From Candidatus Nanoarchaeia archaeon (GTDB taxonomy: Archaea; Nanobdellota; Nanobdellia; Woesearchaeales; JACQSR01), in NCBI GenBank assembly GCA_035289105.1, contig DATDYF010000037.1, positions 6,418 to 70,417 on the forward strand: a stretch of DNA of 64,000 nucleotides. The letters run 5' to 3'. Position 1 is the first letter of the stretch. Each line of letters opens with the position of its first letter. This document shows positions 3,397 through 59,110 of the stretch, piece by piece. The notes under the pieces are model-generated. The model was not told the DNA's origin, searched no databases, and worked only from the letters and a program-made list of their open reading frames with translations. A program made the position numbers and the translations under genes.

Positions 3397-3602
3397 GTGC
3401 CTGTAGCGCAGCCTGGATTTAATACAGAAAGCGCGGCTGCCTCCTAATGAACGCAGAGTTCAAAAGAAAGCAGCAGGTCCGGGGTTCGAACGCAAGGGAC
3501 TGCACCCTTCGCACACCTGCAGTCAAGTGGCATCTACGATGCCACGAACTTTTGGTGATGAGAGAAATATGCAATCCCTTAACGAAAGTCCTCGCAGGCA
3601 CG
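3397..3602 (+). tRNA. tRNA-Arg(CCU) with multiple introns. Includes a canonical 37/38-region intron (about 22 nt) and a non-canonical T-loop (59/60) intron of about 98 nt. The D-loop region is unusually long.
   Basis: Acceptor stem GTGCCTG/CAGGCAC (7 bp perfect). U8 A9 present, D-stem GCGC with 'AGCCTGG' D-loop. Anticodon stem GCTGC (3436-40) pairs with GCAGC (3470-74). Loop is C-U-CCU-A. Variable loop AGGTC. T-stem CGGGG/CCTCG with TTCGAA...T loop split by the intron at 3491-3588. Discriminator G, then TTTTTTT (3603-3609). Confidence 0.55.
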
Positions 3603-4827: not shown

Positions 4828-5238
4828 TCAGGAAATCATCATAACAGGTTTTCTCTTGGGCCTAATCTGCTCCCACGGAAACAAAAGGCTGGCTTCATAG
4901 TCTTTTAGGTGTTGAGCAAGCCTCCTATGGTAATTCTCCAAAGCTCCAAGCAATTCTATAATCGGACCTTCTGTAATTTCTAAGCCAATAAAATTGTTTT
5001 CCCACCTATTTATCCCAAACTCGTCTGCTTTGCAAATGATACCTTCCAGTTCCGTTTCAATCTCATCCGGAACGGGTATCCCCCAGTATTTAATGTCTCC
5101 TAACGGGGATCTCAATCCAAAGCGGTCGATATGCTGAAAATCAAAAGCTTCGACTTTTCCACCATGGAGGTATTTTTCTCTTATCCCCTTAAAATCCTGC
5201 GCCAGTTTTAATGCTCCAGCAACGTAATCAGCTACCAT
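4828..5238 (-). CDS. Hypothetical protein
   Basis: 136-aa ORF with no recognisable motif. Confidence 0.45.
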   Translation of the reverse strand: MVADYVAGALKLAQDFKGIREKYLHGGKVEAFDFQHIDRFGLRSPLGDIKYWGIPVPDEIETELEGIICKADEFGINRWENNFIGLEITEGPIIELLGALENYHRRLAQHLKDYEASLLFPWEQIRPKRKPVMMIS

Positions 5239-21277: not shown

Positions 21278-21817
21278 ATGAAAAGAAGAAATATCAACAT
21301 CAAGGAAAAAATAAAAGCGCATTTTTATCTTTACCCCACTGCTAAGCTTAGGGTAAGGCAGATAGAGAAAGAACTTAAGCTCCCTTTGCCTTCAGTTATT
21401 CGCTATGTGAAAGAATTAACCGATGAGGGATTCCTGAAAAAGTCAAGAATAGGCAATGTCGTCTTTTATTCTGCTGACAGAACTGCAAAAGCATTCCTTT
21501 TGGAGAAAAGATTGTTTAATATTAAGTCGTTGCATAACTCTGGCTTGGTTGATTTCTTAGTTGAGGAGCTTAGCAATCCCGCAGTAGTACTCTTCGGATC
21601 ATATTCTAAAGGGGAAGATATAGAAAGTAGCGATATTGACTTATATGTAGAGACCCCATCTAAAAAAGAGGTTAATCTTGAAGAATTTGAGAAGGTATTA
21701 AAAAGAAAGATAGAGGTTTTGGTCTACAAATCAATTGACGAAATAAAAAACAAGGATTTAACAAATAACATAATAAACGGGATTATGGTAAATGGTTTTG
21801 TTGAGGCAATAAAATGA
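21278..21817 (+). CDS. Minimal nucleotidyltransferase (MNT) with N-terminal wHTH
   Basis: Motif 'GSYSKGEDIESSDIDLYV'. Stop overlaps the start of the downstream HEPN gene. Confidence 0.8.
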   Translation: MKRRNINIKEKIKAHFYLYPTAKLRVRQIEKELKLPLPSVIRYVKELTDEGFLKKSRIGNVVFYSADRTAKAFLLEKRLFNIKSLHNSGLVDFLVEELSNPAVVLFGSYSKGEDIESSDIDLYVETPSKKEVNLEEFEKVLKRKIEVLVYKSIDEIKNKDLTNNIINGIMVNGFVEAIK

Positions 21818-25161: not shown

Positions 25162-25437
25162 ATGGCACGAAAAAACGATTATGACTGGATAAAAATAGTT
25201 GCCTTGTTCATATCGGTTGTTGTGGTGCTAATCATAGCAATAAGCATACGGAATGGGCTAACATCGGATAATATACTTTCAGGGGCAATTACCTTTAAGG
25301 GGCCCAACCCCCATTTATATACTGGACCTAATCCTTTCGGGGAACCTGTTGATATGGAAGCAGCTGTTGCTAGTTATTGTGGCAAAGGTATCTTAGATGC
25401 GGCCCTTGAGGCAAATATTTGTGGAGTGCCACAATGA
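25162..25437 (+). CDS. Small membrane-anchored protein (91 aa). Overlaps the start of the giant gene.
   Basis: Starts 'MARK' within 'aaaatggcacgaaaaa'. The same start context 'aaaatggcacggaaaa' recurs at the giant gene. One TM helix. Confidence 0.42.
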   Translation: MARKNDYDWIKIVALFISVVVVLIIAISIRNGLTSDNILSGAITFKGPNPHLYTGPNPFGEPVDMEAAVASYCGKGILDAALEANICGVPQ

Positions 25438-28400
25438 AAATGGCACGGAAAATAAGGATTTTGTTGCTCGTTTCTTTGATTACCATCATTTCGGCATTTA
25501 GCGCATCAGCAGCAGACTGCGGAAATGGCATCAAGGATTGCGAATGCGGGGATACTGTTGTAGCAGATTATACGTTTAGCTCTGACCTTGTCTGCGACGG
25601 CTCTTCAGGCCCTGTTAGCGGCCTTGTTGTGGGGAGCGATGTGCAGTTGAGCTGTGCTCCTGATGTTAAGATTGAGTGTGCTCCTGGAGTCAAGGATGGA
25701 GGGTCTTGCGAAACTGGAATTTCTATTTCTGCCAGCAACGATATAAGCATAACAGGCTGCACAATCATCGGATGGGATCGCGGAGTAAGGATAGGCAGCG
25801 GCTCTAGCAACATCAATATTACCCTAAACAAAATCTTGCACAACATTCAAGGCATTTTGGTTACGGGAGCCGGAAATAACATCACAATCAGTTATAACAC
25901 TGTATCAGGAAATGGGGTTGAATCTTCCCCTGGGGAAGGAGGGGTTTTGGGAAATTGCGGCGATGGAATAGACAATGATGCAGACACACAAGTGGATTGC
26001 GCGGACAGCGAATGCTCTTTTGATGTCCTGTGCGGAGGGCCTGGGCAGGGATACTTCGGCGGCAGCATCATGGTCTTGACTGTCCACGGCCAGGACAATA
26101 TCCAAATCATCGGGAACACAATTAACGACACTTTTGTATTCGAAAACAGGGGCGCCATTCATATCGGAGGCAGTAATGGCAATATTTCCAATCTTGTAAT
26201 CAGCAACAACACTATATATAATGTTCCCCTCTTCCCGGGAATATCTTTCTCCTTTGTCGGGATTATCAATTTGACGATAAGCAACAACTCGTTAACCAAT
26301 GTCGGAATAGGACTTGGATTTGGTTTTGCTGCGCCAGTTGAAAATGGCATCATCTCGGGAAACAGCGTGACCTGTTCAGGATTGAGTGCTACTCTTGGAG
26401 ATATCGGCATGATGGTAGCGGGAACAGCGGATGTCACCGGTAATATGGTTAATGACTGCGACATAGGCATATTTGCTACATTCGCAGGTCTTGCCCCGGG
26501 ATTTGTGCCCTCTCCAATATCCATTGACGCAAACACAGTAACTTCAAATTTCGGCACTGGAATCTGCACAGACATAGCCTTTGCCACTCTTGAAAACAAC
26601 GTGATATCCAATGGCATTATTGGAATTGCAGACCTCCTTGAGGAGTTTGACCCCGGCAACTGGCAGTCTGGAATAACAATACTCTTTAACTCTTATGCCG
26701 CTGTCCAGAAGGAAATATGCCGGGTTAGATCGCCTCTTGTTGGAGGATGCTTGCAGTTTGCAGAAGACGCATTGGCCGGAACGGTTAATCTGGATGCTTT
26801 GTGCGGTACAGGAGAGCCGCCGTTCTTTTGCCCTATTCAATTTAATTTCATTGTTGGCGGGCAGTTGTATGATGCTCCGGGAGGGGTTGTATATGTTTTC
26901 AAAGAATCAGAAGCCCAGGCTTGCGGCATAGACACCAGCGACGGTGTCCAGGATTATGAGTCGGGTTTGCCTTTCGGCTGTCAGGCTATAACTCAGACTT
27001 GGACTTGCAATGGAATTGCTGGTGGAACATGCAGCATAACGTTAGGTGATCCAGGGCCGGCAGGATATGTTGCGATTGCTTTCGATCATCCTCCAGGCTC
27101 ACAACCGCCGCCTAGTGTAGCTGGTGCTGCCGTATTCGGCGAATCATTATGCGGGGGCCAAGTTGATATCAATGAATTTGGCGGGGAAACCAACTGCGGA
27201 GACGGCATAGACAACGACAATGATGGAAGAATTGATTGCCAGGATGGTGATTGCCAGGGGTCTCCAAGTTGCCCAGGCTGTGTAGTTACCATGAACTGGG
27301 TTGACGAAAACCAACAGCCAGTTAATGCGCCATATGGGAATATTTTATTGCTTTCCTACGATGAAATTAACAATGATTGCGGTATCGACCTCAGTCAGGG
27401 AGTTACTACGGACATCTTCCAGGTATTCGGAAACCCATGTATTACCCAGGTACAAATTTGCGGATTATTCAGCGGAGAATCATTGTCAGACGGGCAATGC
27501 GTCAGCCAGGTTAACATAGCCGCTGGCGACCAAATTGTTGCAGTTGCAATTGGCTCTTTTGGCGCTGAGGAAATCCAGAGTGTGCAGGATTCATGCGAAA
27601 ACGGCTTGGATGATGACGGCAATAACCTTGTAGATTGTGCTGACCCGGCTTGCGCCCCTGCAAGGAATTGCGGACCTTCAAACTCCTTGGTTGGAGGGGG
27701 AATATTTGGGCCACAGGCATGCGGAGGCTCAGCAACAATCGGTCCCCTTGGAGGTCCAGAAGGGTGCCCTCTCACGTTTACTGCATTTGGTGAAAACAAC
27801 AACCCAGTTCCTGACGGTTCGTATATATTTACCTTGGAAACAGCTGTTATTAGCACCATTCCCTACGAATCACCTCAAGGATCGGGCAATTTTATCCTGA
27901 TAGATCCTTCAGATGGCATCGACTTTGATGAATGGTTTGGATTGCTCATCGCAGCTCAAAATGGGCCTCCGCCTGGATTAGACGGTGGGTGTATCTCGCC
28001 CCAAGGCCAGCCAATCCCAACCAGTGGCGGAACCTGTCAGGGAAGTTTAGGGGAACTTTTCCCCGGGAATCCTAATGCACCACACACCGTGGTTGTGCTC
28101 TACGATGACTTTATGAATCCAACACAAATAATTTCACAGAACTATAACTTCCTTACTTGTGGTGGACAGGTTATTATTGGAGAAAGCGGTCCTGAAGTTG
28201 GCGATTGTACAATTACCTATAGCTTTGTCGATGGCCAATCGCAGCCTATCGATGCTCCGAATGGAGGGGTTGTCATATTTAGCCAGAACGCGCTGCAGGC
28301 ATGCGTTGGTACATTTCCGCCCCCGGAGCCAGGAGAAGAGGATTGCAATGCTATCTTTAATCCGTCAGATGGGGTCATGGGCGGTGAAATTAGATGCGCC

Positions 28401-31400
28401 TTTACCTGCCCCGGTGCAAATGTAGGTACCTGTCCCATTAATCTATTTCAGGGAACTCCTGGAATTCCAGGTGGAAGCTGTACCTCCACTATTCTTGGTT
28501 CAGCAAGTCCCGATTACATGATAGCAATTGCTTTGGATACATTTAGTGGGCCGCCTAGCCTTTTTGGCACAGCAACCTTTACAGATGCTGAGTGCGGAAC
28601 AGAGATAATTCCTGGCCAGGTTACGATAGTGGCCGTAGGCGGACCCCCTCCAGGTGCGCTTCAGGTGCTTGTCCTGGAAGGTTCAAACCCCCCAGTAAGC
28701 CCGCCAGGTGCAATAGTCCTTGCCTTTGACGCCACTCAGCTTGAGGCCTTTTTGGGAACTGCTGTTCCTTATGATTTGTCTCCCACGCAGATGCAGAATT
28801 TATTTGCAGATTTAGACCTTGGGCCGGGAGCCGGACAATCTGGCTTTATAGGCGGATGTTTCGGCGAACAGGGGCCTTCACCAACAGGTGCAAATGGCAT
28901 GTGTGATTTGTCATTATTCTTCGGAGATCCAACAGGCCCTGTTGTTGTATTGGCATTCTTGAATTTAGATTTTCAGGCGCCAGATCCTAATTTTATTAAG
29001 ACAAGAGGAGTATACATCGATGGGCCGCCGCCCTCTCCAATCACCATCATCTTCCCCGCCCTTAACCTTTTTGTAGAGAGCGTTACTGCTGCCTCGCCAA
29101 TGGTCTCAGTTACTGCAGGGGCAACAGATGACACAATTGCATACCTTACCCTTTTCGATGGAAGTCCATTCGCCGGTGCAATCCGTATTGAAACAAGGGC
29201 AGTTGCCTTAAGGGTAAATGCTCCAATAACGGAAGTATTTGAAGTGCCGGACAGCCCCTCCACAACCGGAGGAAGCCTTCATGCATTCTTTGCGCAGGTT
29301 TCACCGATTAACGACCTCTTCCCGCAGGATAATGTAAAAGCAGAGGTAAGGCCAAGCATCCTGGCATCTGTAACTAGCAGCAGCAGCACAAAATCCAACT
29401 CTGTCCGTGATTTCTCCTTCACAACAAGTGTTGATGATTACGTTCCTTCCGCAGCCGATTCATTGGTTATCATCGTTCCTGATTTCGGCAAGAGCAAAGC
29501 AGATTATAGCGCCATTGCAGAAAAGCTTGCGCAATCAGAAAAACGGGTATTTGTCATTGACCCTGTTGGGTATAAGGGAACAACCAGTACGGTAACCACC
29601 AGCGACCCCCTCTTCAAAGGGAACAACCTCCGAAAATGGAAAGAGAAGGACCGATTATTGCCTATTTCTGCACAGTTGTGCGCTCTTATTCCTCAATTGA
29701 AGGCCGAAACTGGCCTTGCCAGTGCAACAATCATCGGGGATGGCATGGGCGGGGCAATAGTTAACACCCCGGAATTGGTCTGTTCAGCGCAGGCAAATGC
29801 TTTGGTTTCTACGGGGGCTTACTGCAAGCCGGTCACTTTCAGCGAAGGCGGCCCAAAATCCGCTGTTCCGTATTTCAATCTTAAGGACGGAAAAACCCCA
29901 TGTGAACTGCCCCCTTCATCAGTGCCCTCTTTGGTTTTGCAAGGTGATGAAGAGAAGCCGCAGGGGGATTTGTGGTTCTTCAAGTTCAAGAACAAGAAGC
30001 CAGTTACCTACGGCCTTATCCAGGGCGCCCAAGATTCATTCATAACAAACAGTTTCGCCGGAACACCGGAGTTTGATAATGCAGAGATATACATCAAATC
30101 CTTTATCGAAAAGGAGACAGGCGGTGCATATACTCAGTTGGAGAACGACCTTAACTTGAGGCCGGAGCTTGTCCATCTTTTATTGGAAGATGTCAGGGCA
30201 AATGATGATGCGGTAAAGCCCAAAGACACTCTTGTTTCCAATGATGGCTTCAATCTTTTCGCCATTGAAAGCGCAGACTTAAGCAGCACCCCCACAGGAT
30301 GGGCTGTTGGCTCTGTTGTGGATATCGAAGATGTCAAGGACGACTTTGCCAACTTCATGACCAACGCCCTGAAAATCAGCGCAGGCGAAGCAACTCAAAA
30401 GGTATTTGTTAAGGGAAGCTTTGAAAATCCCGATTCAGGCCAGCTTGTTTTGAACTACAAGGTTCTTGCCCCAAGCACCAACCCGGTTGACAGCTCCGCA
30501 AAACTAAGGCTGGACTTCAAAGACATGCAAGGCAACTCGCTTGCCTGCATTGAATTCCATTCCACAAACCTTCCGGTAAGTTCCACATGCAGCTTTGCCA
30601 TTGCGGTCTCCTCAGGAAACGACGGCAGGATACAGGAGATAAGCAACATCCCAGTCTCCGAGATACTAAAGTCTGTTGGGGCCTTCACAACCAAGATATT
30701 CTCAGTTGACATCGAAATCAGTTCTGACAGTCCCTTTTATTATGATGATGTCGAACTCCTGCTTGAAGAAGATGTTTTGGAGGTGAATGAAGCAGACTTT
30801 TTGGATTTAACTTCTCACACAGCCACCTTCACATCGCCAATTATAAACATAAATGCGGGAGAGCAATTAACATCCATCCTGCCCCTGTTCGTGGCAGAAG
30901 ATGGCGCATCAATTACCGCTGATGTTCTTGATGAATTTGATATTCCCATAATTTCAGGAATTGAGCTTAATTCTGCAGCTAATCTTATGGCATTCCACGA
31001 AACGCTCAAGGGGCTGGATTCATTAAAAGTGCGGTTCAACCTTGATCCGGGAGTTACGCTGTACAAATACTATGTTGTTGCCAAGCCTGTTGATGTGTTT
31101 GATACAAACATTAATGGGGTGGAGGTAAACTCGCTCTTGCTTGACGAGCAGGGCTCCCATTCCGATTACAGCGTTGCATTTAACCTGAACAACCCTGGTG
31201 ACTTTGACTTAATTTCAGCCGGGGAAACATTAAGCTCCGATGCCATCTCATTCGGTGTTGGTGAAATCTACAATCGCGTGGTAAAAACGGATAATTCAAT
31301 CACAAGGAGCGATGCTAATAATGGAATCACTGAAACCGATGTTAGTAGCTCATCAGGCACTGTTGATTCATTTATAACCTTGTTTGATTCGAGTGTCGAT

Positions 31401-34400
31401 ACGATAACCCAGGATATTAACTTTGGGGCTGGGTGCCATGTTGAGGTGGATGATGTCGTAATGACATCGGCTTTCACAACCAACAAGCTTATAGATATTG
31501 TATGCCCTAATGAAGAATTTACACTGACGCCCTTTTACGGCGCTTCAAATATAGAGTTGAATGAAGTAAAGGTAGACCCTGTCGATGCTACAAAAGACAC
31601 TGTAGGGGATTTGGACAAGCTGGAGGTAAGGGATGACAGCGCACTTACGAAAACAGCCGGAGAGTCTGTTCTTGAGGAAGGATATGACTTTTCCTTGCTC
31701 CAGGACTTCCTGCAAAATGACATTTATCAGTTCCTCCTGGATAACGGAATAAACGATTCGCTTACCCAGTTTTTCAAAAATCAGCTGGATAAGTCAGCAG
31801 ATGGTGTACTCAAGAGAGACCAGGTTTTAGAAACTGCATTCCTTGGCTTGTTGGGCGGGGATAATAATTTCTCAACAATAATGGATACTGAAGTGCAGTT
31901 CACGGCTACAGGCATCAGGCTTATCACAAGGACACAGGGAAATTCAATATTGTCCAGAACCATTGGCATTTCAAGCTCATTAAACTCAGACAGGTTTTCA
32001 ATAAAGGGGCCTGGATTGGCAGAAGGCAAATGCACCTCAACAAGGGCAATCGTCCTGGAATCTAGCCTGATTACGCCTAAAGGCCTTTCTGTCTCGGATT
32101 GCGTTGATATTTTTGTAAGGGGAGAATCAAAGGACCTGGCACAGGACGTTAACAGCATTGACCAGCTTGCAAAAGAAGCCGTTAGCCCAAGGCTTGATAA
32201 GGAAATGGTTGATACTGTGCTTGATTCAGCCAAAGATAACGTAACGCCCAGGCGCGGCGTTATCTCAATAGGCGGCAGCTTTGACATGAGGGATTCAACA
32301 ATATCCGCCTTGGATGACTTGGGCTTTATTGGAATCTCTGTTGCCGGAAACAGCTTTGTTGAAAACTCTGAAGTTTTGGACTTCCAATACTTTCAAAGTT
32401 CAGCGGGATGCAATTTCATTGGCTCAGTATTTGAAAGCAGCGCAATTGACCTTCTTGAGGAGGAAAATAGGAATGCGGCAGAGAACAGAAACAGCGAACA
32501 GCTGGACTTCGCCAGGCAATTCCACGGCGTTTCATGCTCAAGTGTTGATACCGGGCCTGCCAATGCCTTGGACCAAAGCCCCTCAGGCAATTATAAGCCT
32601 TCAGATGTTGCCACAAGCAGCGTAGCTGAGGCCACGCTGAAGATATTTGAGATGGACGACCCTTGTGTTTTGAGTGTGGCAGAGGGAGGCAGTGTTTGCG
32701 ATAAAGTCCTTGCTGACTTGAATGCAAGGGATGTGCCGATAACCATAAGGTCATTTGGCGAGGCAGCAGACCAGCTTAACTTGGCAGATATTGCATTTAA
32801 CCAGGATCTTACTAATATCAAGGTGTCCGAAATTGGAAAAATCCCAAGTTCATTATCCTCCATTACATTCAAGGGCATACCATTAGACCAGATTATGGCA
32901 ACAGACATTCTTGACGAAATAAACAACAATCAAAAAATTGACGAGGTTAACGCCATAAGGACTAATATAGAAAACACAGGGATAGACAATAACGCTGATG
33001 AATTGCTGACGGAGGGCGAGGAGATAGCGCAGCCCGGCCTGCTCGATGCAAATTTAGCTCCAGTCTCGTACAGCGGCTTAATGGTTGAAACACCGGTAGA
33101 AGACCTTGATGTTTGCCTGTTAAGCCTGCCTGACGGAACCGGCATATGCGATGTCCGCATAGACCAGGACACCATAATTGAGGATTTGGGCATAACCTTG
33201 TGCGGCCTGAAAAGAAATGGAGTCAGCATATGCAATATTATAACTGATGACCTGAATGATAACCCCACTTTAGATACAGTGGGATATGAGGCAGAGTACC
33301 AGGTTTCAAAGAACGGCGATGTTGACGTATCAGAGCTTTCATTGGGGGATTTGGCTATCGGCGACAGGGGCGATTCTGTGCCGTTTACTGCATTGGACAC
33401 CTCAATCAATAATGTAAAGTTCTGTGACCTCCAGCTTGAAGGGGTCTCCGTTTGCAATGTAGTTGCAGGCAAAACAGCTGTGGAGCAGGCAACTGACTTT
33501 ACAGGATTGGATGCCTTCGACATTATTCAGAAGCTGGAAAATATTCCCGACATCAGGGAATCTGATTACACTGGCTCCTTTGATTACCTTATGGAGAATC
33601 TTAACTTCTGCGCAAATTATGCTGGTTATATTGACGCTGAATTAAGGAAAGAGAATAATCTCGATTACCTGAGGGTTGATAAGTCATTTAAGTTCGGAAA
33701 TGTGGCCAAGCTCCACATCGATGGCATGTGCAGTGTTCAGTTGGACCAAACAAGCCTGTGCGATTTGGAAGGAAACGATGTATACGGGCCCGTCATACAA
33801 AATTCAGCGGCCATAAGCGATTCCTGCAATAATGCTGCTGGAGACTTTGGGTCATGCGTAACAAACCTCAAGGAGCTTAATTCATGCCAGCTGACAATAG
33901 GCGGAGTTTCGGTATGCAGCGTGGAGGTTTCAAAAGGGCTCATTAACGACCAAACTGTTTATGCCGGATTTAACATAACCAAGCTGCAAATTAATGGGCT
34001 TTGCGCGCTGGCTTACAAGGGAATAAGCATTTGCGACACTTCAATAGATAAGGTGTTCAACTTTACAGAATCCCAGGGCACGCTTGAAGCAGCTACCGGC
34101 GAAGAATTGATATCTGCGTGCGACCTGACCTTTAACGGCATTAACCTGTGTTCTGGCCATCAATTTGATGATGAGTTCTGCGACCAGGCAAAAATAGACG
34201 GCGTAAGCGTATGCAACAGCAGATGGGACAACAGGCTTGTTGATGATGAACTAATCACCGAAGCTGCGCAGGGCCAGGTATTTAATGATGCCCGAGATGG
34301 AGGAACATTCGGCGATGAGCAAAAACAAAGGCTTCTAAGGCCGAGCGTTTGCGACTTGGAGATAAATGGCACCACATTGTGCGATGCCGTTGCTCTAGTA

Positions 34401-37400
34401 ACATTTACCAACACAGTGCTGCCTGGCGAATCACCTGCAGACTTTGTATTGGACCACACCGTACTTGAGTTTGTTAGTATGGATGAAACCAAGGTTAACC
34501 TTCTATTGATAGAGCTCGGGGAGAAATGCAATGAGCTGTTTATCAATGTAACTGATATCATCAACAAAACAATACCTAACATAGAGCATAAGGGAGTTCC
34601 GCTGTCAGAAATGACTTTATGCGATGATGTTGAAATCAATGGCTTAAGCCTGTGCGATGCCAATTTAGTATTGATAAACGATAGCGACATCCTTGATGTG
34701 GTGCTAAATGGGGATGTTGTAGGCCAGATGGATTTAAGGGCCCTCCTCACAAACCTCGTCTTTGCCTTAACTTATGATGTAGGTGGAGAAACATTCAATG
34801 ATGCGACTGGAACAATAGGGGACATATTGGACCTGAGGGAAGTAAGGCTTGGCTCTTCCAACCTTCTCGATAACGTGCTCCTTTCTTCCAATTCCATAAG
34901 GAATAGCGAAGTTGATGTGCTGACAAGGCTATTTATGGATTACTCAATAGGCACCCTCTCGAAACCGCAAAGGACTCTAACATTCGACAATAAGAAGGCA
35001 ATTGAAGTGTTGGATATAACATTAAACTCTTATGACCAATTCAACCTGGATTGCGCTATAGCGAAGGAGATTCAGAGCAAGGTAGATTTGGAGGGCACTG
35101 AAATTGATTCTCCGATAAGCAAGGTTGAGTTGTGCGATGTGTTTGGCATTCCTACACCCTTAAGCAATGCGCAATTTGGAATCAGCTCCTACTCACCGCC
35201 TATTGGAAGTCTTAAGGAGGGCAGCCTAACGGTTAATCTTAACAGCGTAGAGTTTAGCGATTTCACTCTTGAAACGCTGTATAACCTTACTGAGTTCGAT
35301 TCAGAAACATGTGATATTCACAACAATGAATTTACGGATGCAGCTGTATCAATCAATTGCGAATTAAGCGCAACGGGAAATAACTTCTTTGGCAAGGACC
35401 TTAGCGATGGCGGTGACTTAATCCTTGGGTCGCCTGGCGCATTAGTAGTAGCTGTACCGGATGATGACGATAAAGTTGAAATATCCGGAAACAGGTTTAA
35501 TTTCAACCACATGGGAGGCCCTGGATTGGTGGGCGCAGCAGAAGTTGATGTATCTAAAAACGATTTCGTGGACCCATTGTTTAACGCACAATACATAACT
35601 GATTCCAGGAATTATCTGGAGCAGTTCATTGTAAAAGAGAACCTCGACACTGTAGATATAAACGACAACGTGCTTGTTGATAGAGTTGAAAGCAGGATAA
35701 GCAGGGATGAAGCCAAGGAGCTCGCTAATACCGCTGACAAATACAATCTTGTTGACGACAGGTATGCGGATTTAGCTTCGGATAGGTCAGAAATAGCAGA
35801 GCTTAATAGGGCATTAAGCCAGCTTAATGATATAGACATTGAAAGCATCCAGCTGACAAATGAAATTGCCGATATGTTTGGCATAGATATATCGAGAGTT
35901 GAAACATTGCTTAATAGGGAATTAACACCGATAGATATTTCAAACCTCGATGTGGATAACACCCTAAATATAGAGAGGAATTACTACAGGGGCTTTAACA
36001 GTGTTAGGGCATATTTGCCCGAGCTAATAATCCCGGGAAATCTCAACTTTGCTACAGAGACCTCAGTGTTTATTTATCCAAAGAAGCGCGTATCCTTCGT
36101 TGGCAACGCCATCGTTGACAATCCGCCTATAAAAATAAAATCAAAAGAGGCGATTGACATCTCTAAGGTATTATTGCTGAATAACTTCAGGGCTGGCTGT
36201 GAAATTGATGATGCAGCCGGCATGAGAAACTGCGCCGATGTTGAGTTATCAACCATGGCGGAACCGCCAGAGATTTCAGGTGCAACCGCTGCGTCATTGG
36301 ATAGGGATGAGGATACTGTGCCTAACCATGTTGACAACTGCCCATTCACCCCAAATACTGGCCAGGAAGACACGGACTTTGACACTTTAGGGGATATGTG
36401 CGATAACTGCGATGATTTCAACCCTGACCAGTTTGACAGGGACCTTGATGGGATTGGAGATGTATGTGATAATGATAGGGATGGCGACGGCATTGCCAAT
36501 CCGGCAGATGCCTGCCCAAATGCCTTCGATCCGGGCAATTCAGCGGAAATATGCAGTGGTTGTGTTGATTTGGATGCAGATACATTCTACGCCTTTGATG
36601 CGGATGAATGCACTGGGGGCAATGACTGTGATGACAGCAACGCAGCAGCAAACATCTTTAGATTGGAGGCATGCAATAATCTGGATGACAATTGTAACGG
36701 CCAAACTGACGAATCCGTGCTCCAGAGATGCGGTGCTAGCGATGTAGGAGAATGTACTTTTGGAGTTGAAGCTTGCTCAGCAGGAAGCTACATTGGATGC
36801 ACTGCAATATTGCCCACTGCAGAGGTTTGCGATGGCTTGGATAATGATTGCGATGCAATAGTGGATGAAGGGATTGCTCCACAGCAGTGCGAAGTTACTG
36901 ATGCTGGAGAATGCAGATTTGGATTAAGGAGCTGTGAAGGAGGCGCATTCAGTTCTTGTGTGGGCAACATTGATCCAGTAGCAGAGATATGCGATAGCCT
37001 TGACAATGATTGTGATGGGCAAGCAGATGAAAGCGCTGCAGGCGGAGACCTTACAGAGGTTTGTGGCACAGATGTAGGCGCATGCCAAACTGGCGTGAGA
37101 ACGTGCTCTGCAGGAGGATTTGGAGTATGTGTGGGAGAAATTGCTCCCGTAGGGGAGACATCCTTGGCCTGCAACAACATAGATGATAACTGCAATGGAG
37201 TAATAGACGATGGTTATGATAGGGATGATGATGGCTTTACGAGCTGTGATACGCCAAAACCAGACTGCAACGACAACGATCGGTCAATTAATCCGGATGC
37301 GCCTGAAAGATGCAACGATGGCATAGACAACAACTGTGATGGCAAAGTAGACTTTGGCGATACAGTTAACTGCCCTGCTGCCGATAAGGTATCTGTTGAG

Positions 37401-38453
37401 CTGCACACAATAGACCAGGCAAAAACTAATTATTGCGGTGCAGGAAGGGGCAGCTGCAAGGAGCCGATACAAGGTGCTAGGGTAAAAGTCTTTGACAGGG
37501 ATAACGCTGACTTCCAGAGCGCGTTCACCAAGAATCCAAGCGGCACTTTATACGATGTGGTCTATGAGTCTGACATTGGCTTGATTGGCAGCTGCATTAC
37601 TGACAGCAGCGGCAGTTGCCTTGCAGTGGAGCAAGGTGCTGGCACTTACCTAGTTATAATCAAATATGTAGACGAGGAAACAAACTCAAATATATATGTA
37701 GGCAGGCCAAAGTCCCCATCTGACTTCGTTGATGTGAATGGCGACGGCAAAAGGGATATGGCAACAAAAGAAATACAAATAATTAAAGTCCTCGAAAAGG
37801 GCGGCAGGATTACCTTTAGGGGAGGAAGCAAAATCGTTGTTACAGGCTCAGAATTAGTGGTTATTTCAGCTGATAATGTGATTTGGATGAATGACAGGGA
37901 AGTTTATCCGTTCATATTCACTTCAGATGCTGACTGGACTGTGGATGTCTGCATGCAAATACCTGCGGGCTACCGAATAGAAGGTGTGCTGGATGAGAAT
38001 GGAAACGTAGTAACTACGGCAAATTGCGCGCAAACGTTTGTATCCGGCGAGGCTAAAGTAGTTATTTTCTCAGTAGTTGAAGTAGGCAGTCCGGAGCCTA
38101 ATTTCGGATTCACATTAACTACAAAGCATAATGGAAAAACTCAAACGGCAAAGGGGACAATAAATGGCATAAGGCAAAAAACGAAAACCCAATTGCAAAA
38201 GCAAATATCAACTAAAGTTAAGGCAGCTAAACAGGAAATAGCTAATCGCCAAGCAAAAAGCCAAACAAAAGAGACAGCTTCTCCACTAACCTCCAGAGCA
38301 GTAATCTCCAGGGCAGCAATGAGTTCAGCAACAGCATCAGAGCCTGTTGCGCCAAATGGAAATCTGACTTTCATATTCGCAATTTCTTCTATAGCCCTGC
38401 TTGTGTTATTGCTGGCAGTTATATATATCTACAAGGAAAGGGCAGCAAGATAA
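25419..38453 (+). CDS. Giant secreted cell-surface protein (4344 aa). Contains signal peptide, parallel beta-helix, three CGDGIDND Cys motifs, C-x9-C repeat array, TSP3-like Ca-binding repeats, MopE-like Cys-rich repeats, CarboxypepD_reg-like domain and a C-terminal TM anchor.
   Basis: Single uninterrupted 13035-nt ORF. N-terminal 'KIRILLLVSLITIISAFSASA'. PbH1-like 'ISNNTIYNV/ISNNSLTNV/ISGNSVT'. 'NCGDGIDNDNDGRIDCQDGDC' appears three times. 'DTDFDTLGDMCDNCDDFNPDQFDRDLDGIGDVCDNDRDGDG'. 'CDGLDNDCDAIVDE/CDSLDNDCDGQADE'. 'GARVKVFD..TDSSGSC..GTYLVI'. C-terminus '..LTFIFAISSIALLVLLLAVIYIYKERAAR'. Confidence 0.9.
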   Translation: MWSATMKMARKIRILLLVSLITIISAFSASAADCGNGIKDCECGDTVVADYTFSSDLVCDGSSGPVSGLVVGSDVQLSCAPDVKIECAPGVKDGGSCETGISISASNDISITGCTIIGWDRGVRIGSGSSNINITLNKILHNIQGILVTGAGNNITISYNTVSGNGVESSPGEGGVLGNCGDGIDNDADTQVDCADSECSFDVLCGGPGQGYFGGSIMVLTVHGQDNIQIIGNTINDTFVFENRGAIHIGGSNGNISNLVISNNTIYNVPLFPGISFSFVGIINLTISNNSLTNVGIGLGFGFAAPVENGIISGNSVTCSGLSATLGDIGMMVAGTADVTGNMVNDCDIGIFATFAGLAPGFVPSPISIDANTVTSNFGTGICTDIAFATLENNVISNGIIGIADLLEEFDPGNWQSGITILFNSYAAVQKEICRVRSPLVGGCLQFAEDALAGTVNLDALCGTGEPPFFCPIQFNFIVGGQLYDAPGGVVYVFKESEAQACGIDTSDGVQDYESGLPFGCQAITQTWTCNGIAGGTCSITLGDPGPAGYVAIAFDHPPGSQPPPSVAGAAVFGESLCGGQVDINEFGGETNCGDGIDNDNDGRIDCQDGDCQGSPSCPGCVVTMNWVDENQQPVNAPYGNILLLSYDEINNDCGIDLSQGVTTDIFQVFGNPCITQVQICGLFSGESLSDGQCVSQVNIAAGDQIVAVAIGSFGAEEIQSVQDSCENGLDDDGNNLVDCADPACAPARNCGPSNSLVGGGIFGPQACGGSATIGPLGGPEGCPLTFTAFGENNNPVPDGSYIFTLETAVISTIPYESPQGSGNFILIDPSDGIDFDEWFGLLIAAQNGPPPGLDGGCISPQGQPIPTSGGTCQGSLGELFPGNPNAPHTVVVLYDDFMNPTQIISQNYNFLTCGGQVIIGESGPEVGDCTITYSFVDGQSQPIDAPNGGVVIFSQNALQACVGTFPPPEPGEEDCNAIFNPSDGVMGGEIRCAFTCPGANVGTCPINLFQGTPGIPGGSCTSTILGSASPDYMIAIALDTFSGPPSLFGTATFTDAECGTEIIPGQVTIVAVGGPPPGALQVLVLEGSNPPVSPPGAIVLAFDATQLEAFLGTAVPYDLSPTQMQNLFADLDLGPGAGQSGFIGGCFGEQGPSPTGANGMCDLSLFFGDPTGPVVVLAFLNLDFQAPDPNFIKTRGVYIDGPPPSPITIIFPALNLFVESVTAASPMVSVTAGATDDTIAYLTLFDGSPFAGAIRIETRAVALRVNAPITEVFEVPDSPSTTGGSLHAFFAQVSPINDLFPQDNVKAEVRPSILASVTSSSSTKSNSVRDFSFTTSVDDYVPSAADSLVIIVPDFGKSKADYSAIAEKLAQSEKRVFVIDPVGYKGTTSTVTTSDPLFKGNNLRKWKEKDRLLPISAQLCALIPQLKAETGLASATIIGDGMGGAIVNTPELVCSAQANALVSTGAYCKPVTFSEGGPKSAVPYFNLKDGKTPCELPPSSVPSLVLQGDEEKPQGDLWFFKFKNKKPVTYGLIQGAQDSFITNSFAGTPEFDNAEIYIKSFIEKETGGAYTQLENDLNLRPELVHLLLEDVRANDDAVKPKDTLVSNDGFNLFAIESADLSSTPTGWAVGSVVDIEDVKDDFANFMTNALKISAGEATQKVFVKGSFENPDSGQLVLNYKVLAPSTNPVDSSAKLRLDFKDMQGNSLACIEFHSTNLPVSSTCSFAIAVSSGNDGRIQEISNIPVSEILKSVGAFTTKIFSVDIEISSDSPFYYDDVELLLEEDVLEVNEADFLDLTSHTATFTSPIININAGEQLTSILPLFVAEDGASITADVLDEFDIPIISGIELNSAANLMAFHETLKGLDSLKVRFNLDPGVTLYKYYVVAKPVDVFDTNINGVEVNSLLLDEQGSHSDYSVAFNLNNPGDFDLISAGETLSSDAISFGVGEIYNRVVKTDNSITRSDANNGITETDVSSSSGTVDSFITLFDSSVDTITQDINFGAGCHVEVDDVVMTSAFTTNKLIDIVCPNEEFTLTPFYGASNIELNEVKVDPVDATKDTVGDLDKLEVRDDSALTKTAGESVLEEGYDFSLLQDFLQNDIYQFLLDNGINDSLTQFFKNQLDKSADGVLKRDQVLETAFLGLLGGDNNFSTIMDTEVQFTATGIRLITRTQGNSILSRTIGISSSLNSDRFSIKGPGLAEGKCTSTRAIVLESSLITPKGLSVSDCVDIFVRGESKDLAQDVNSIDQLAKEAVSPRLDKEMVDTVLDSAKDNVTPRRGVISIGGSFDMRDSTISALDDLGFIGISVAGNSFVENSEVLDFQYFQSSAGCNFIGSVFESSAIDLLEEENRNAAENRNSEQLDFARQFHGVSCSSVDTGPANALDQSPSGNYKPSDVATSSVAEATLKIFEMDDPCVLSVAEGGSVCDKVLADLNARDVPITIRSFGEAADQLNLADIAFNQDLTNIKVSEIGKIPSSLSSITFKGIPLDQIMATDILDEINNNQKIDEVNAIRTNIENTGIDNNADELLTEGEEIAQPGLLDANLAPVSYSGLMVETPVEDLDVCLLSLPDGTGICDVRIDQDTIIEDLGITLCGLKRNGVSICNIITDDLNDNPTLDTVGYEAEYQVSKNGDVDVSELSLGDLAIGDRGDSVPFTALDTSINNVKFCDLQLEGVSVCNVVAGKTAVEQATDFTGLDAFDIIQKLENIPDIRESDYTGSFDYLMENLNFCANYAGYIDAELRKENNLDYLRVDKSFKFGNVAKLHIDGMCSVQLDQTSLCDLEGNDVYGPVIQNSAAISDSCNNAAGDFGSCVTNLKELNSCQLTIGGVSVCSVEVSKGLINDQTVYAGFNITKLQINGLCALAYKGISICDTSIDKVFNFTESQGTLEAATGEELISACDLTFNGINLCSGHQFDDEFCDQAKIDGVSVCNSRWDNRLVDDELITEAAQGQVFNDARDGGTFGDEQKQRLLRPSVCDLEINGTTLCDAVALVTFTNTVLPGESPADFVLDHTVLEFVSMDETKVNLLLIELGEKCNELFINVTDIINKTIPNIEHKGVPLSEMTLCDDVEINGLSLCDANLVLINDSDILDVVLNGDVVGQMDLRALLTNLVFALTYDVGGETFNDATGTIGDILDLREVRLGSSNLLDNVLLSSNSIRNSEVDVLTRLFMDYSIGTLSKPQRTLTFDNKKAIEVLDITLNSYDQFNLDCAIAKEIQSKVDLEGTEIDSPISKVELCDVFGIPTPLSNAQFGISSYSPPIGSLKEGSLTVNLNSVEFSDFTLETLYNLTEFDSETCDIHNNEFTDAAVSINCELSATGNNFFGKDLSDGGDLILGSPGALVVAVPDDDDKVEISGNRFNFNHMGGPGLVGAAEVDVSKNDFVDPLFNAQYITDSRNYLEQFIVKENLDTVDINDNVLVDRVESRISRDEAKELANTADKYNLVDDRYADLASDRSEIAELNRALSQLNDIDIESIQLTNEIADMFGIDISRVETLLNRELTPIDISNLDVDNTLNIERNYYRGFNSVRAYLPELIIPGNLNFATETSVFIYPKKRVSFVGNAIVDNPPIKIKSKEAIDISKVLLLNNFRAGCEIDDAAGMRNCADVELSTMAEPPEISGATAASLDRDEDTVPNHVDNCPFTPNTGQEDTDFDTLGDMCDNCDDFNPDQFDRDLDGIGDVCDNDRDGDGIANPADACPNAFDPGNSAEICSGCVDLDADTFYAFDADECTGGNDCDDSNAAANIFRLEACNNLDDNCNGQTDESVLQRCGASDVGECTFGVEACSAGSYIGCTAILPTAEVCDGLDNDCDAIVDEGIAPQQCEVTDAGECRFGLRSCEGGAFSSCVGNIDPVAEICDSLDNDCDGQADESAAGGDLTEVCGTDVGACQTGVRTCSAGGFGVCVGEIAPVGETSLACNNIDDNCNGVIDDGYDRDDDGFTSCDTPKPDCNDNDRSINPDAPERCNDGIDNNCDGKVDFGDTVNCPAADKVSVELHTIDQAKTNYCGAGRGSCKEPIQGARVKVFDRDNADFQSAFTKNPSGTLYDVVYESDIGLIGSCITDSSGSCLAVEQGAGTYLVIIKYVDEETNSNIYVGRPKSPSDFVDVNGDGKRDMATKEIQIIKVLEKGGRITFRGGSKIVVTGSELVVISADNVIWMNDREVYPFIFTSDADWTVDVCMQIPAGYRIEGVLDENGNVVTTANCAQTFVSGEAKVVIFSVVEVGSPEPNFGFTLTTKHNGKTQTAKGTINGIRQKTKTQLQKQISTKVKAAKQEIANRQAKSQTKETASPLTSRAVISRAAMSSATASEPVAPNGNLTFIFAISSIALLVLLLAVIYIYKERAAR
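33108..34670 (+). repeat. Array of about 11 degenerate C-x9-C repeats (consensus C-D-L-x-h-x-G-h-S-h-C-D/N) inside the giant protein
   Basis: VCLLSLPDGTGICD, LCGLKRNGVSICN, FCDLQLEGVSVCN, MCSVQLDQTSLCD, SCQLTIGGVSVCS, LCALAYKGISICD, ACDLTFNGINLCS, FCDQAKIDGVSVCN, VCDLEINGTTLCD, LCDDVEINGLSLCD. Confidence 0.6.
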
Positions 38454-40915: not shown

Positions 40916-41368
40916 TCAGGGAGACAATCCTTTTTCCTTTATTATTCTATCAATCTTTTTGATGATGCCGTTATGGAAATCCAATATTTCCTTGGCTTCC
41001 TCGACGCTGACGGTTTGGCCGTAATACTTTGAGCCGTTTCTTTTGTATCTGAACCTATCGAGCGTTTCCAGCATTTGTATATTAAAATTGAATTTTGCAA
41101 GATAGGCAAACGAAGCCTGATGGGAGTAGGATTTATAACCTTCTATTGCTAAAACTGCGTCTGCAAAATCCCTAAGCGCGTCATAGACATTCTCAAAGAC
41201 GATTTTTGGGTAGTTCTGGGTCAACAGTGACTTCGAGTCCTTGATTCTGCTATTCATATCCCTAACAAGTGATTTTGCTAAAGCTAAATCGGGCGCTGCC
41301 TTTTTTACTTCGCCAATCTCAAGGTAATAGTCAAAAGGTTTCATAATCAAGGTAACCAAACAGTACAA
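40916..41368 (-). CDS. HEPN domain protein (partner of MNT)
   Basis: 'FRYKRNGSKYYGQ' paralogous to 21814-22236. Overlaps the upstream NTase gene by 38 nt. Confidence 0.7.
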   Translation of the reverse strand: MYCLVTLIMKPFDYYLEIGEVKKAAPDLALAKSLVRDMNSRIKDSKSLLTQNYPKIVFENVYDALRDFADAVLAIEGYKSYSHQASFAYLAKFNFNIQMLETLDRFRYKRNGSKYYGQTVSVEEAKEILDFHNGIIKKIDRIIKEKGLSP

Positions 41369-41861
41369 CCCCGTTTATTAGGTTGGTATAGAGCTCTTTT
41401 GGAATCTTTCCGTTCTGAACCAGCAGGATATGAATGCCCCTATTTAACATTTTCTCAAATATTTTCGTACTAACCGAATATTTTTCGGAAGTTACTACTG
41501 CAATATCTATGTCGCTTTTCAAGACATCCTCTCCTCGAGAGTAACTTCCAAATAGGATTATGGCTTTCGGGTTGTAGTGCTTTCTCAAAAAGTCTATTAC
41601 CCCGGAATCATAGACTTTTTCCAAGTTATGCAACCTTTTTTTTGCGAGAAAATGCGGGTTTTCTAGGTTTGGCGTAATTTCCACAATATGCTTCTTAACT
41701 TCCCTTTTAACCAGGCTTTCCTTTTCCAGCTCCTCAAGGGCATTAAGGACGCTGTTAGGGTTTACATGGATTTCCCTTGCAAGCTCCCTTATATAGAATT
41801 TCCTGGAGGGATTGTCAAAAATCCTTGAGATTATTTTCTGTTTTACATTCATTTTATACAA
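41331..41861 (-). CDS. Minimal nucleotidyltransferase (MNT) with wHTH
   Basis: Motif 'GSYSRGEDVLKSDIDIAVV'. Paralog of 21278-21817. Confidence 0.8.
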   Translation of the reverse strand: MYKMNVKQKIISRIFDNPSRKFYIRELAREIHVNPNSVLNALEELEKESLVKREVKKHIVEITPNLENPHFLAKKRLHNLEKVYDSGVIDFLRKHYNPKAIILFGSYSRGEDVLKSDIDIAVVTSEKYSVSTKIFEKMLNRGIHILLVQNGKIPKELYTNLINGVVLFGYLDYETF

Positions 41862-58631: not shown

Positions 58632-58694
58632 AGAATATATAAATATTACTAAAATGTCCTAAAAAAGACAGATATGTTTAAATGTATTATGATA

Positions 58695-58852
58695 TGCACC
58701 GGCTGGGACTTTCGACATATGAGCGATTTGGGGGATACGAGCGAAGCGAAGTATCCTCCGATTCTCTTTGCTCATTTCTCGGATACGAGAAATGTTTCGA
58801 ACCCAGGCCAAAAGCTTGGAAGGCTTCTATCCTACCGCTAGACTACCGGTGC
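58695..58852 (-). tRNA. tRNA-Gly(UCC) with an 87-nt non-canonical intron in the T-loop (59/60)
   Basis: Minus-strand read is GCACCGG-TA-GTCT-AGCGGTA-GGAT-A-GAAGC-CTTCCAA-GCTTT-TGGC-CTGGG-TTCGAA-[intron 58709-58795]-T-CCCAG-CCGGTGC-A. Acceptor and T stems are perfect. U33 and A37 are present. Anticodon is UCC. Confidence 0.65.
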
Positions 58853-59110
58853 ATGAAGGGAAAGAAAAAGGGGCGATTTAAAAAGCAATCGATTTTAACT
58901 AACTTAGACAACTATTTACTCTAAACTATATACTCTAGAATAGATTTATTTATACGCCTCTTTCTTTACTGAAAGGATGCATGGGAAGAAAAAGGATTTT
59001 AACCGAAACAGACGAGCAAGTCAAAGAAACGCTGGAAAGGATTGACGAGTTAATCGAAAGAAACAAGAGATTACCCCTTCTATTTTGATTTTTTACAGAA
59101 ACAAGGCAGA

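Follow-up and report, generated by a model that had tools for sequence, protein, structure and literature searches.

The stretch of DNA analyzed here, 64,000 nucleotides (nt) in length and referred to as the window, encodes a tRNA-Gly(UCC) whose T-loop is interrupted by an 87-nt intron. We give a probability of about 0.9 to the reading that the locus is a functional tRNA gene of a Nanoarchaeia (Nanobdellota, DPANN) archaeon and that the intron, located between tRNA positions 59 and 60, is removed by proteins at a bulge-helix-bulge (BHB) motif. This reading is carried by the integrity of the gene, the insertion relative to an intronless orthologue, the fold of the junctions, covariation in the central helix, and the family relations of the intron. 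A tRNA-Gly intron at 59/60 is of an already known kind. The spread of its families and the long, modular T-loop introns of Nanoarchaeia were not found described in the literature searched, the coverage of which was incomplete.

The pre-tRNA body is 158 nt and occupies positions 58695-58852 on the minus strand, as read from the sequence and from the ARAGORN call on the spliced form. Exon 1 (58796-58852, 57 nt) comprises tRNA positions 1-59, contains the anticodon TCC at 58820-58818, and ends in the T-loop bases TTCGAA. The intron follows at 58709-58795. Exon 2 (58695-58708, 14 nt) is composed of U60, CCCAG, CCGGTGC, and the discriminator A, and no CCA is encoded. From 58852 to 58695, the minus strand reads GCACCGG TA GTCT AGCGGTA GGAT A GAAGC CTTCCAA GCTTT TGGC CTGGG TTCGAA, the 87-nt intron, and T CCCAG CCGGTGC A. 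The acceptor stem (GCACCGG/CCGGTGC) is paired at 7 of 7 positions, the T-stem is CTGGG/CCCAG, and the T-loop TTCGAA-T is split after its sixth base. When the intron is removed in silico, the resulting 71-mer is recognized by ARAGORN as tRNA-Gly(tcc) with a regular cloverleaf, and the predicted exon-exon junction is GGGUUCGAA-UCCCAGCC, where the exon 2 side starts with UCCCAG. The initial annotation had placed a minus-strand tRNA-Gly(UCC) with an 87-nt 59/60 intron at these positions and described the same acceptor stem, T-stem, T-loop TTCGAAT, and cloverleaf after removal of 58709-58795; all of these descriptions hold. From the unspliced DNA, the sole ARAGORN call is a forced 72-nt model (58781-58852, minus strand) with a mismatched acceptor that takes its T-arm and the 3' strand of the acceptor from intron bases. 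The unspliced sequence scores 24.8 bits against the Rfam tRNA family, for which the gathering score is 29. An archaeal TATA-box-like sequence, TTTTTAAAT (58876-58884, minus strand), is found 24-32 nt 5' of tRNA position 1, and a T6 run (58661-58666, minus strand) is found 29-34 nt past the discriminator. By the archaeal promoter consensus, the former is a putative promoter element, and the latter is a candidate archaeal terminator of the tRNA-Gly gene.

The intron is missing from a syntenic orthologue. In locus L188 (GCA_023255615.1), genes for Fer4, DHH, tRNA-Gly, and a protein of 212 amino acids (aa) occur in the same order as in the window, and the DHH proteins are 70% identical. The tRNA-Gly(UCC) of L188 is uninterrupted (5049-5119) and scores 67.5 bits against Rfam tRNA. 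The spliced window tRNA-Gly is identical to it at 68 of 71 positions, which further supports the cloverleaf. Two of the three differences make up one compensatory pair, A3:U70 versus G3:C70, and the third changes a T-stem U:A to U.G. The T-loop of L188, TTCGAAT, is the product expected from joining 58796 to 58708. The tRNA-Gly gene is at the identical site in L188 and lies 1-1.8 kb downstream of DHH in loci L189, L192, and L015. Four of the five orthologues near the DHH gene have a 59/60 intron, and the five states are 0, 16, 31, 87, and 103 nt; the intron is present, absent, or replaced at orthologous sites. The 103-nt intron belongs to L015, the 31-nt intron to L192, and the 16-nt intron (CACACATTATCGAAAA) to L189/L190, where the same tRNA also has a D-arm intron. 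The intron bodies of L189/L190, L192, and L015 are unrelated. Across the five spliced orthologues, 98.1% of the cloverleaf cells are paired and six pairs have changed on both sides, and 0 of 500 shuffles scored as high. In addition, three independent assemblies agree in every base of the 158-nt pre-tRNA-Gly, and the flanks of two of them deviate from those of the window.

L189, the closest relative (DHH 75% identical), and also L190 carry a tRNA-like 5' fragment, GGGGCCTATTAGTCTAATGGAAGGAAAAC, and a T-run right after the DHH gene. In L189, the fragment spans approximately 1364-1400, and the real tRNA-Gly(UCC), with its D-arm intron and 16-nt T-loop intron, is encoded at 2286-2405, 1 kb beyond the fragment and behind an unrelated open reading frame (ORF) of 203 aa. 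This arrangement of a fragment and an inserted gene resembles the fragment-plus-insertion model of tRNA gene disruption (PMC3293823).

The exon-intron junctions fold in a manner that is similar in the tRNA-Gly and in a second T-loop-intron gene of the window, tRNA-Arg(CCU), which is described below. The unconstrained minimum free energy (MFE) folds of both pre-tRNAs contain a 5-base-pair (bp) T-stem, a 3-nt bulge AGU60, the helix UUCG:CGAA, and an unpaired A59 with the intron base that follows it. In the tRNA-Gly precursor, the exon strand of the central 4-bp helix is U54 U55 C56 G57 (58798-58801; pair probabilities 0.70-0.78), and the intron strand is CGAA at intron positions -6 to -3 (58711-58714); both strands are supported by covariation. 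The bases A(-2), G(-1), and U60 (58708-58710) form the 3-nt bulge, with unpaired probabilities of 0.81-0.95, and the predicted 3' splice site is between 58709 and 58708. On the other strand, A58, A59, and intron A1 (58795-58797) form a bulge or loop with the predicted 5' splice site between 58796 and 58795; A59 is unpaired with a probability of 0.99 and intron nt 1 with a probability of 0.87. All of these positions refer to the minus strand. The usual rule for BHB motifs is that EndA cleaves each 3-nt bulge after its second base. By this rule, the cuts would fall after A59 and before U60, in agreement with the intronless orthologue. The inner helix ACAU:AUGU (58792-58795 with 58715-58718) appears in a fold that is only 0.6 kcal/mol above the MFE. 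Across introns, an inner helix is usually present but offset, and the commonest geometry has one unpaired intron base on each side, for which reason the motif is classed as a relaxed BHB. The tRNA-Gly junctions, as modeled, fit this relaxed form, in which a bulge is replaced by a loop next to a 4-bp helix. The initial annotation had expected the junctions to allow a relaxed BHB, and the MFE folds and pair probabilities agree.

Several points weigh against protein splicing at a BHB here. The tRNA-Gly precursor does not form a strict 3-4-3 BHB. Pairing of intron A1 with U(-7) would leave a 5' bulge of 2 nt; without it, the bulge is 3 nt and faces one unpaired base. The MFE fold favors an intron hairpin over the inner helix. 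Moreover, the annotated parts of the window contain neither an EndA gene nor an RNA ligase gene, and the scanned window proteins and the precomputed Pfam tables show no tRNA_int_endo domain.

The sequence CGAAAG at the end of both window introns is explained by this fold. Because TTCGAA is palindromic, CGAA complements UUCG, and the addition of two bulged bases yields CGAAAG. To extend this to other tRNAs, the collected archaeal loci were scanned for a TTC[AG]A loop in genes whose T-stem and acceptor are complementary and whose spliced form is valid to ARAGORN, and 35 tRNAs with 59/60 introns were found. TTCG loops pair with CGAA in all cases except one UGAA (a G.U pair) and one CGAG, and seven of the eight TTCA loops go with an intron TGAA. 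The same holds in the tRNA-Gly of L192 (T-loop TTCAAA, intron end TGAATG) and in L127, a member of the tRNA-Gly intron family (T-loop TTCAAA, intron end TGAAAG). Since 25 of the 35 tRNAs came from a search pattern that fixes CGAAAG, these were excluded from the covariation count. Among the 13 distinct cases for which the intron end played no part in selection, L127 included, pairing of the central helix is 98.1%, and this falls to 59-70% when the partner is slid by one column. The pair 57:(-6) is A:U in seven of these cases, G:C in four, G:U in one, and unpaired in one. The common ending CGAAAG is a structural requirement of the 59/60 site and no mark of shared descent. The proposal in the initial annotation that CGAAAG marks a lineage-specific class of splicing endonuclease substrates is not supported, as the ending pairs with the T-loop and covaries with it (TTCA to TGAA).

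The geometry of the site has a counterpart elsewhere in the tRNA. Positions 54-60 of the T-arm match positions 32-38 of the anticodon arm: in both, a 7-nt loop is closed by a 5-bp stem, and 54 corresponds to 32 and 60 to 38. The 59/60 site therefore copies the canonical 37/38 arrangement. At both sites, the first four loop bases are paired to the 3' part of the intron, the 3-nt bulge is composed of the last two intron bases and the first base of exon 2, and the 5' site follows the sixth loop base. Unlike at 37/38, the T-loop is the host loop, and the inner helix is either weak or gives way to a loop. With the intron in the T-loop, formation of this loop and its modifications must wait for splicing.

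From the sequence, we infer transcription of the gene, cleavage by EndA, ligation, and the type of EndA in the host. In the proposed pathway, the T-stem would form in the precursor, and U54-G57 of the T-loop would pair with the intron CGAA (-6 to -3) to generate the 4-bp central helix. A(-2), G(-1), and U60 would bulge out of the 3' strand and hold the 3' splice site, and A58, A59, and the first intron base would be unpaired in the 5' strand, where the 5' splice site would lie among them. The inner helix ACAU:AUGU is predicted to be weak and in competition with an intron hairpin, which would make the motif a relaxed BHB (hBH-loop like). EndA would then cut both sites, and an RtcB-type ligase would join the exons. 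The products would be a tRNA with a normal 7-nt T-loop, UUCGAAU, and a released intron, the body of which belongs to a sequence family spread among different tRNA genes.

Introns of this type are frequent in Nanoarchaeia and Woesearchaeota tRNAs, where 80-110-nt introns are found at 59/60. One genome per species was scanned with the pattern GGGTTCGAA-N75-105-CGAAAGTCCY, and at least 119 loci match it. Among the matches listed, 37 are archaeal and 82 are bacterial; after splicing, a T-stem paired at 5 of 5 positions and an acceptor paired at 7 of 7 are restored in 31/37 archaeal loci and in 0/82 bacterial loci. The initial annotation had suggested a search of other DPANN genomes for T-loop introns ending in CGAAAG. 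The archaeal loci among the matches listed are labeled Woesearchaeota, Nanoarchaeota, Nanoarchaeia, or "uncultured Methanosarcinales" (a third-party set of metagenome-assembled genomes, MAGs). Many of these T-loop-intron tRNAs have a second or third intron. Among viral contigs, there were 63 matches to the pattern, of which two passed the stem test and both are doubtful, and the 5' module of the tRNA-Gly intron described below is absent from these contigs.

Two further observations concern the source genomes. Nanoarchaeia-type T-loop-intron tRNAs are present in MAGs named "uncultured Methanosarcinales archaeon" (L009, L015, L022, L025, L031, L038, L061, L062, L083, L118, and L121). One of these, L015, is syntenic with the window and encodes a DHH protein that is 53% identical over 339 aa. 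By these sequences, the Methanosarcinales label of the MAGs is probably wrong. In L124 (Woesearchaeota YT3_932), adjacent genes for tRNA Val, Ile, and Glu (minus-strand offsets 6327-7200) each have both an anticodon-loop intron and a T-loop intron.

The introns are grouped into families that are shared between different tRNAs. Unrelated introns have a background global identity of 0.56+/-0.03, and the shuffled maximum is 0.67. Above this level are the introns of L015 (Gly) and L117 (Arg) at 0.87, those of L098 and L102, which are two different tRNAs of one MAG, at 0.85, and those of L022 (Arg) and L061 (Gly), also of one MAG, at 0.74. The window tRNA-Gly intron is 0.73 identical to the intron of L087. 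Read by eye, the host tRNA of L087 is Arg(CCU), whereas its spliced form is Phe(aaa) according to ARAGORN. When metagenomes were scanned with an 18-mer that the window tRNA-Gly and L087 introns share, a tRNA-Ala(UGC) (L127/L181) and a tRNA-Cys(GCA) (L150) were added. Among the 62 matches to the 18-mer, only those in L127/L181 and L150 are introns, and the rest are chance matches, mostly around the start codons of protein genes. Similar introns are therefore found in non-orthologous tRNAs, and this includes the family of the window tRNA-Gly intron (Gly, Ala, Cys, and Arg(CCU)-like). This family was seen at 59/60 only.

Other families are found at more than one tRNA position. In the L124 tRNA-Val, the 92-nt intron at 37/38 has homologues at 59/60 in L106, L117, and L015; its local alignment scores are 91 and 80 against L106 and L117, where the shuffled maximum is 19. 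This family thus occupies 37/38 in one tRNA (Val) and 59/60 in others (Gly and Arg). Members of another family lie in the T-loop of L098 and L102, and the member in L085 lies upstream of the T-arm. Three more introns in the anticodon loop or upstream have relatives in T-loops. Judged from these alignments, the intron families behave as mobile elements that are not specific to the T-loop. The suggestion of a mobile intron family targeting the T-loop therefore stands in one part, as families are shared between tRNAs, and falls in the other, as one family is at both 37/38 and 59/60.

The body of the tRNA-Gly intron contains the hairpins P1 and P3. P1, CATTTCTCG-TATC-CGAGAAATG (58773-58794, minus strand), is predicted by folding, and in four family members its stem is invariant and its loop is variable. 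The 5' strand of P1 has an alternative partner in the 3' end of the intron (ACAT:ATGT), which is the inner BHB helix. P3, GGAGGATAC / 12-nt loop / GTATCCCCC (58730-58759, minus strand), is the strong hairpin reported in the initial annotation; the two strands are paired at 8 of 9 positions with one A.C mismatch. Its counterpart in L127, GGAGGATGC/GCATCCCCC, has a compensatory A:T to G:C change. In the four host tRNAs of this family (the window, L087, L127, and L150), the first 44 nt of the intron are identical except for the P1 loop. This 44-nt 5' module (58752-58795 in the window) is ACATTTCTC-loop-GAGAAATGAGCAAAGAGA and includes the invariant segment GAGAAAUGAGCAAAGAGA. The 3' half is barely alignable among the four hosts. 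RNAalifold recovers the T-stem, bulge, central helix, and P1 from the family. For the "CAGCTTTTTTGC" family of introns, a joint alignment (MAFFT and RNAalifold) recovers the terminal helix only.

A second module recurs across families. It is composed of CAA-G-stem...stem-C-G-R (e.g., GTCAAGTGGCATC..GATGCCACGAAC) and is found in at least 8 of 49 non-redundant introns, where 0.28 are expected by shuffling. Its carriers are the window tRNA-Arg intron (3524-3548), L150, L022, L025, L034, L043, L104, and others. The intron of L150 combines this module with the 44-nt 5' module and so links both window introns. The module has no Rfam match and does not fit the K-turn consensus. The 7-mer GCTTCGC is also enriched, in 8 of 49 introns with a null maximum of 5, and may merely reflect stable UUCG-like loops. 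In Rfam searches of the whole window and both tRNA genes, at the gathering score and at E<=10, no family was found for the intron bodies. By BLAST, the window has no further copy of either intron, and the sequences searched contain no copy beyond tRNA genes. Readings of the intron and of the CAA-G-stem module as box C/D, H/ACA, or K-turn RNA were dropped by eye, as the consensus bases are missing. The tRNA-Gly intron has no C (RUGAUGA), D (CUGA), or ACA box by eye, and the tRNA-Arg intron has one GUGAUGA and no CUGA. An IS200/IS605-like element with hairpin ends was dropped as well, because the two intron hairpins have no relation to one another and there is no transposase in the vicinity.

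The observations above bear on several other explanations. The intron body could be a functional RNA, either a stable and probably circular small RNA or a protein-binding module, with the tRNA gene as an expression cassette, as for the box C/D RNA in euryarchaeal tRNA-Trp introns. This is compatible with a functional, protein-spliced tRNA-Gly gene and is possible, if unlikely. The near-identity of the first 44 nt in four host tRNAs next to an almost unalignable 3' half, the compensatory change in P3, and the excess of the CAA-G-stem module, also in the window tRNA-Arg intron and L150, all argue for it. The conservation could also reflect recent spread and recombination of selfish modules, and the bodies match no Rfam family, have no visible C/D or H/ACA boxes, and have no copy beyond tRNA genes in the sequences searched. 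Moreover, orthologues with introns of 0, 16, or 31 nt indicate that the body is dispensable for the tRNA. A broader form of this idea, likewise tentative and unlikely, is that the long T-loop and anticodon-loop introns of Nanoarchaeia are a modular superfamily of structured RNAs whose bodies are under their own selection, released as stable, probably circular small RNAs or as protein-binding modules, or carrying signals for an as yet undescribed type of mobility by EndA and RNA ligase in reverse. The 44-nt 5' module and the CAA-G-stem...stem-C-G-R module may be candidate modules of such a superfamily. We regard it as quite unlikely that introns ending in CGAAAG make up a substrate class peculiar to the lineage or a mobile family directed at the T-loop in particular. 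Many Nanoarchaeia and Woesearchaeota tRNAs do have 80-110-nt 59/60 introns with this ending, the tRNA-Gly intron family occupies 59/60 of four tRNAs (those for Gly, Ala, and Cys and that of L087), and L098 and L102 of one MAG have introns that are 85% identical. Against this, CGAAAG is accounted for by T-loop pairing and the bulge and covaries with the T-loop sequence, the L124 and L085 families cross between the T-loop and other positions, the window introns lack significant similarity to one another, and 59/60 introns occur in unrelated archaea (PMC3239211, PMC4090602).

The intron could also be kept because it breaks a T-arm attachment site of virus or plasmid integrases. This is the idea that Randau and Soll put forward on disrupted tRNA genes, as cited in PMC4033280. 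The existence of this hypothesis in the literature and the L189 fragment with its inserted unrelated gene, which indicates that the orthologous site is subject to rearrangement, give it some support. We consider it improbable, as no integrase or element border adjoins the window tRNA-Gly and the viral contigs carry neither a convincing T-loop-intron tRNA nor the 5' module. A pseudogene, in which an 87-bp insertion stays in place and inactivates the tRNA-Gly, would explain why standard tRNA finders fail on the unspliced sequence and why a close relative (L188) has an uninterrupted gene. It is very improbable given the intact exons with compensatory changes relative to the orthologues, an insertion at precisely a site that permits a BHB, a 59/60 intron in four of five DHH-linked orthologues, an invariant sequence in three assemblies with differing flanks, and the TATA-like box and T-run that flank the gene. 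A self-splicing intron, a ribozyme, or an assembly artefact has nothing in its favor beyond the existence of the insertion and can be given almost no credence. At 87 nt, the insertion is far below the size of group I or group II introns and has no large ribozyme core, and it has no match to an Rfam ribozyme or intron even at E<=10. Identical sequence in three independent assemblies and homologous introns in other genomes likewise argue against it.

The functional, protein-spliced gene preferred here has several known relatives. The 59/60 site is listed among the non-canonical intron sites of archaea (PMC4090602). In ARMAN-2 (Candidatus Micrarchaeum acidiphilum), also a DPANN archaeon, the pre-tRNA-Cys(GCA) has a 13-nt intron at 59/60 in a relaxed BHB (hBH / BHL) and is correctly cleaved in vitro by its own epsilon2 EndA (Fujishima et al. 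2011, PMC3239211). The ARMAN-2 tRNA-Pro has two T-loop introns (PMC3239211). The 59/60 position is accordingly a documented non-canonical site, including in DPANN (PMC3239211, PMC4090602). In comparison to the ARMAN-2 tRNA-Cys, the intron of the window tRNA-Gly is 87 nt with internal hairpins. EndAs with an L3 loop, which are associated with more tRNA gene disruption, have been reported from DPANN lineages, Woesearchaeota among them, and those of the alpha4 type are reported from multiple DPANN lineages (PMC5829648).

Thermoproteales introns are likewise BHB-bounded and, by the summaries of Sugahara 2008 and Fujishima 2010 in PMC4090602 and PMC4033280, occur at many positions, including 59/60, with up to three per tRNA. 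As in the introns described here, similar introns are found in unrelated tRNA species, and this has been read as large-scale intron transposition (Fujishima 2010, as relayed in PMC4033280 and PMC4090602). Thermoproteales belong to TACK rather than DPANN, their intron sequences are unrelated to those described here, and the introns described here are 80-110 nt, modular, and rich in hairpins.

The euryarchaeal tRNA-Trp intron carries a box C/D guide RNA. The tRNA-Gly intron is similar to it in being a long, structured tRNA intron with a body conserved beyond the needs of splicing, and differs in that it has no C or D boxes and no Rfam match.

Introns of this type have consequences for annotation. 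Both tRNA genes found in the 64-kb window are invisible to or mis-called by ARAGORN and Rfam because of their T-loop introns. Automatic annotation would give the tRNA-Gly a wrong 3' end and miss the tRNA-Arg altogether. In tRNAscan-SE 2.0, the training data of the BHB models came from Crenarchaeota, Euryarchaeota, and Thaumarchaeota (PMC8450103). Incomplete tRNA sets in DPANN have been remarked to point to unidentified disrupted genes, and manual curation has been asked for (PMC5829648). In a 2026 survey of 208 complete Nanobdellota genomes, tRNAs are still missing, with incomplete sets in Woesearchaeales and Pacearchaeales (bioRxiv 10.64898/2026.05.13.725050). Some of these apparently missing DPANN tRNAs could be T-loop-intron genes. 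An intron end complementary to T-loop positions 54-57, followed by two bulged bases, is a simple and testable descriptor for their detection. With one tRNA-Gly locus in 0-, 16-, 31-, 87-, and 103-nt states and families common to several tRNAs and to both 37/38 and 59/60, this lineage would be a second natural system, after Thermoproteales, for the gain, replacement, and loss of protein-spliced introns.

The companion tRNA-Arg(CCU) gene (3397-3602, plus strand) is interrupted three times. Its D-loop contains an insertion of approximately 12 nt near 3418-3429, with an approximate junction, its anticodon loop a 22-nt intron, and its T-loop a 98-nt intron at 59/60 (3491-3588). For ARAGORN to find this tRNA, the T-loop intron must be removed along with 10 nt or more of the D-loop. 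As the initial annotation had noted, its T-loop intron is at 59/60 and ends in CGAAAG, like that of the tRNA-Gly. The global identity of the tRNA-Arg intron to any other intron is at most 0.62, which is within the range of the background and its maximum given above. A comparison of the two window introns, as the initial annotation had proposed, gives no significant direct similarity; neither BLAST nor global alignment finds any above background.

That the host is an archaeon is shown by a family B DNA polymerase and CDC48, which are encoded in the window along with GatD/GatE-like proteins, and by the DHH phosphoesterase adjoining the tRNA-Gly, as a protein identical to it carries the NCBI name "Candidatus Nanoarchaeia archaeon". 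Homologues of this DHH protein at 52-57% identity are named Woesearchaeota or Nanoarchaeota. The class Nanoarchaeia belongs to Nanobdellota and thus to DPANN, in agreement with the host assignment made earlier from the sequence. Contigs with the same genes come from groundwater metagenomes, including a Rifle data set. The window also contains a 4344-aa ORF (25419-38453, plus strand); giant proteins of this kind often occur in DPANN genomes. Two small proteins (21278-21817, plus strand, and 41331-41861, minus strand) each have an N-terminal winged-helix-like part and a nucleotidyltransferase domain (NTP_transf_2 / Polbeta). The gene at 41331-41861 overlaps a 150-aa ORF (40916-41368) that has no Pfam match. 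These two small proteins may belong to toxin-antitoxin-like pairs.

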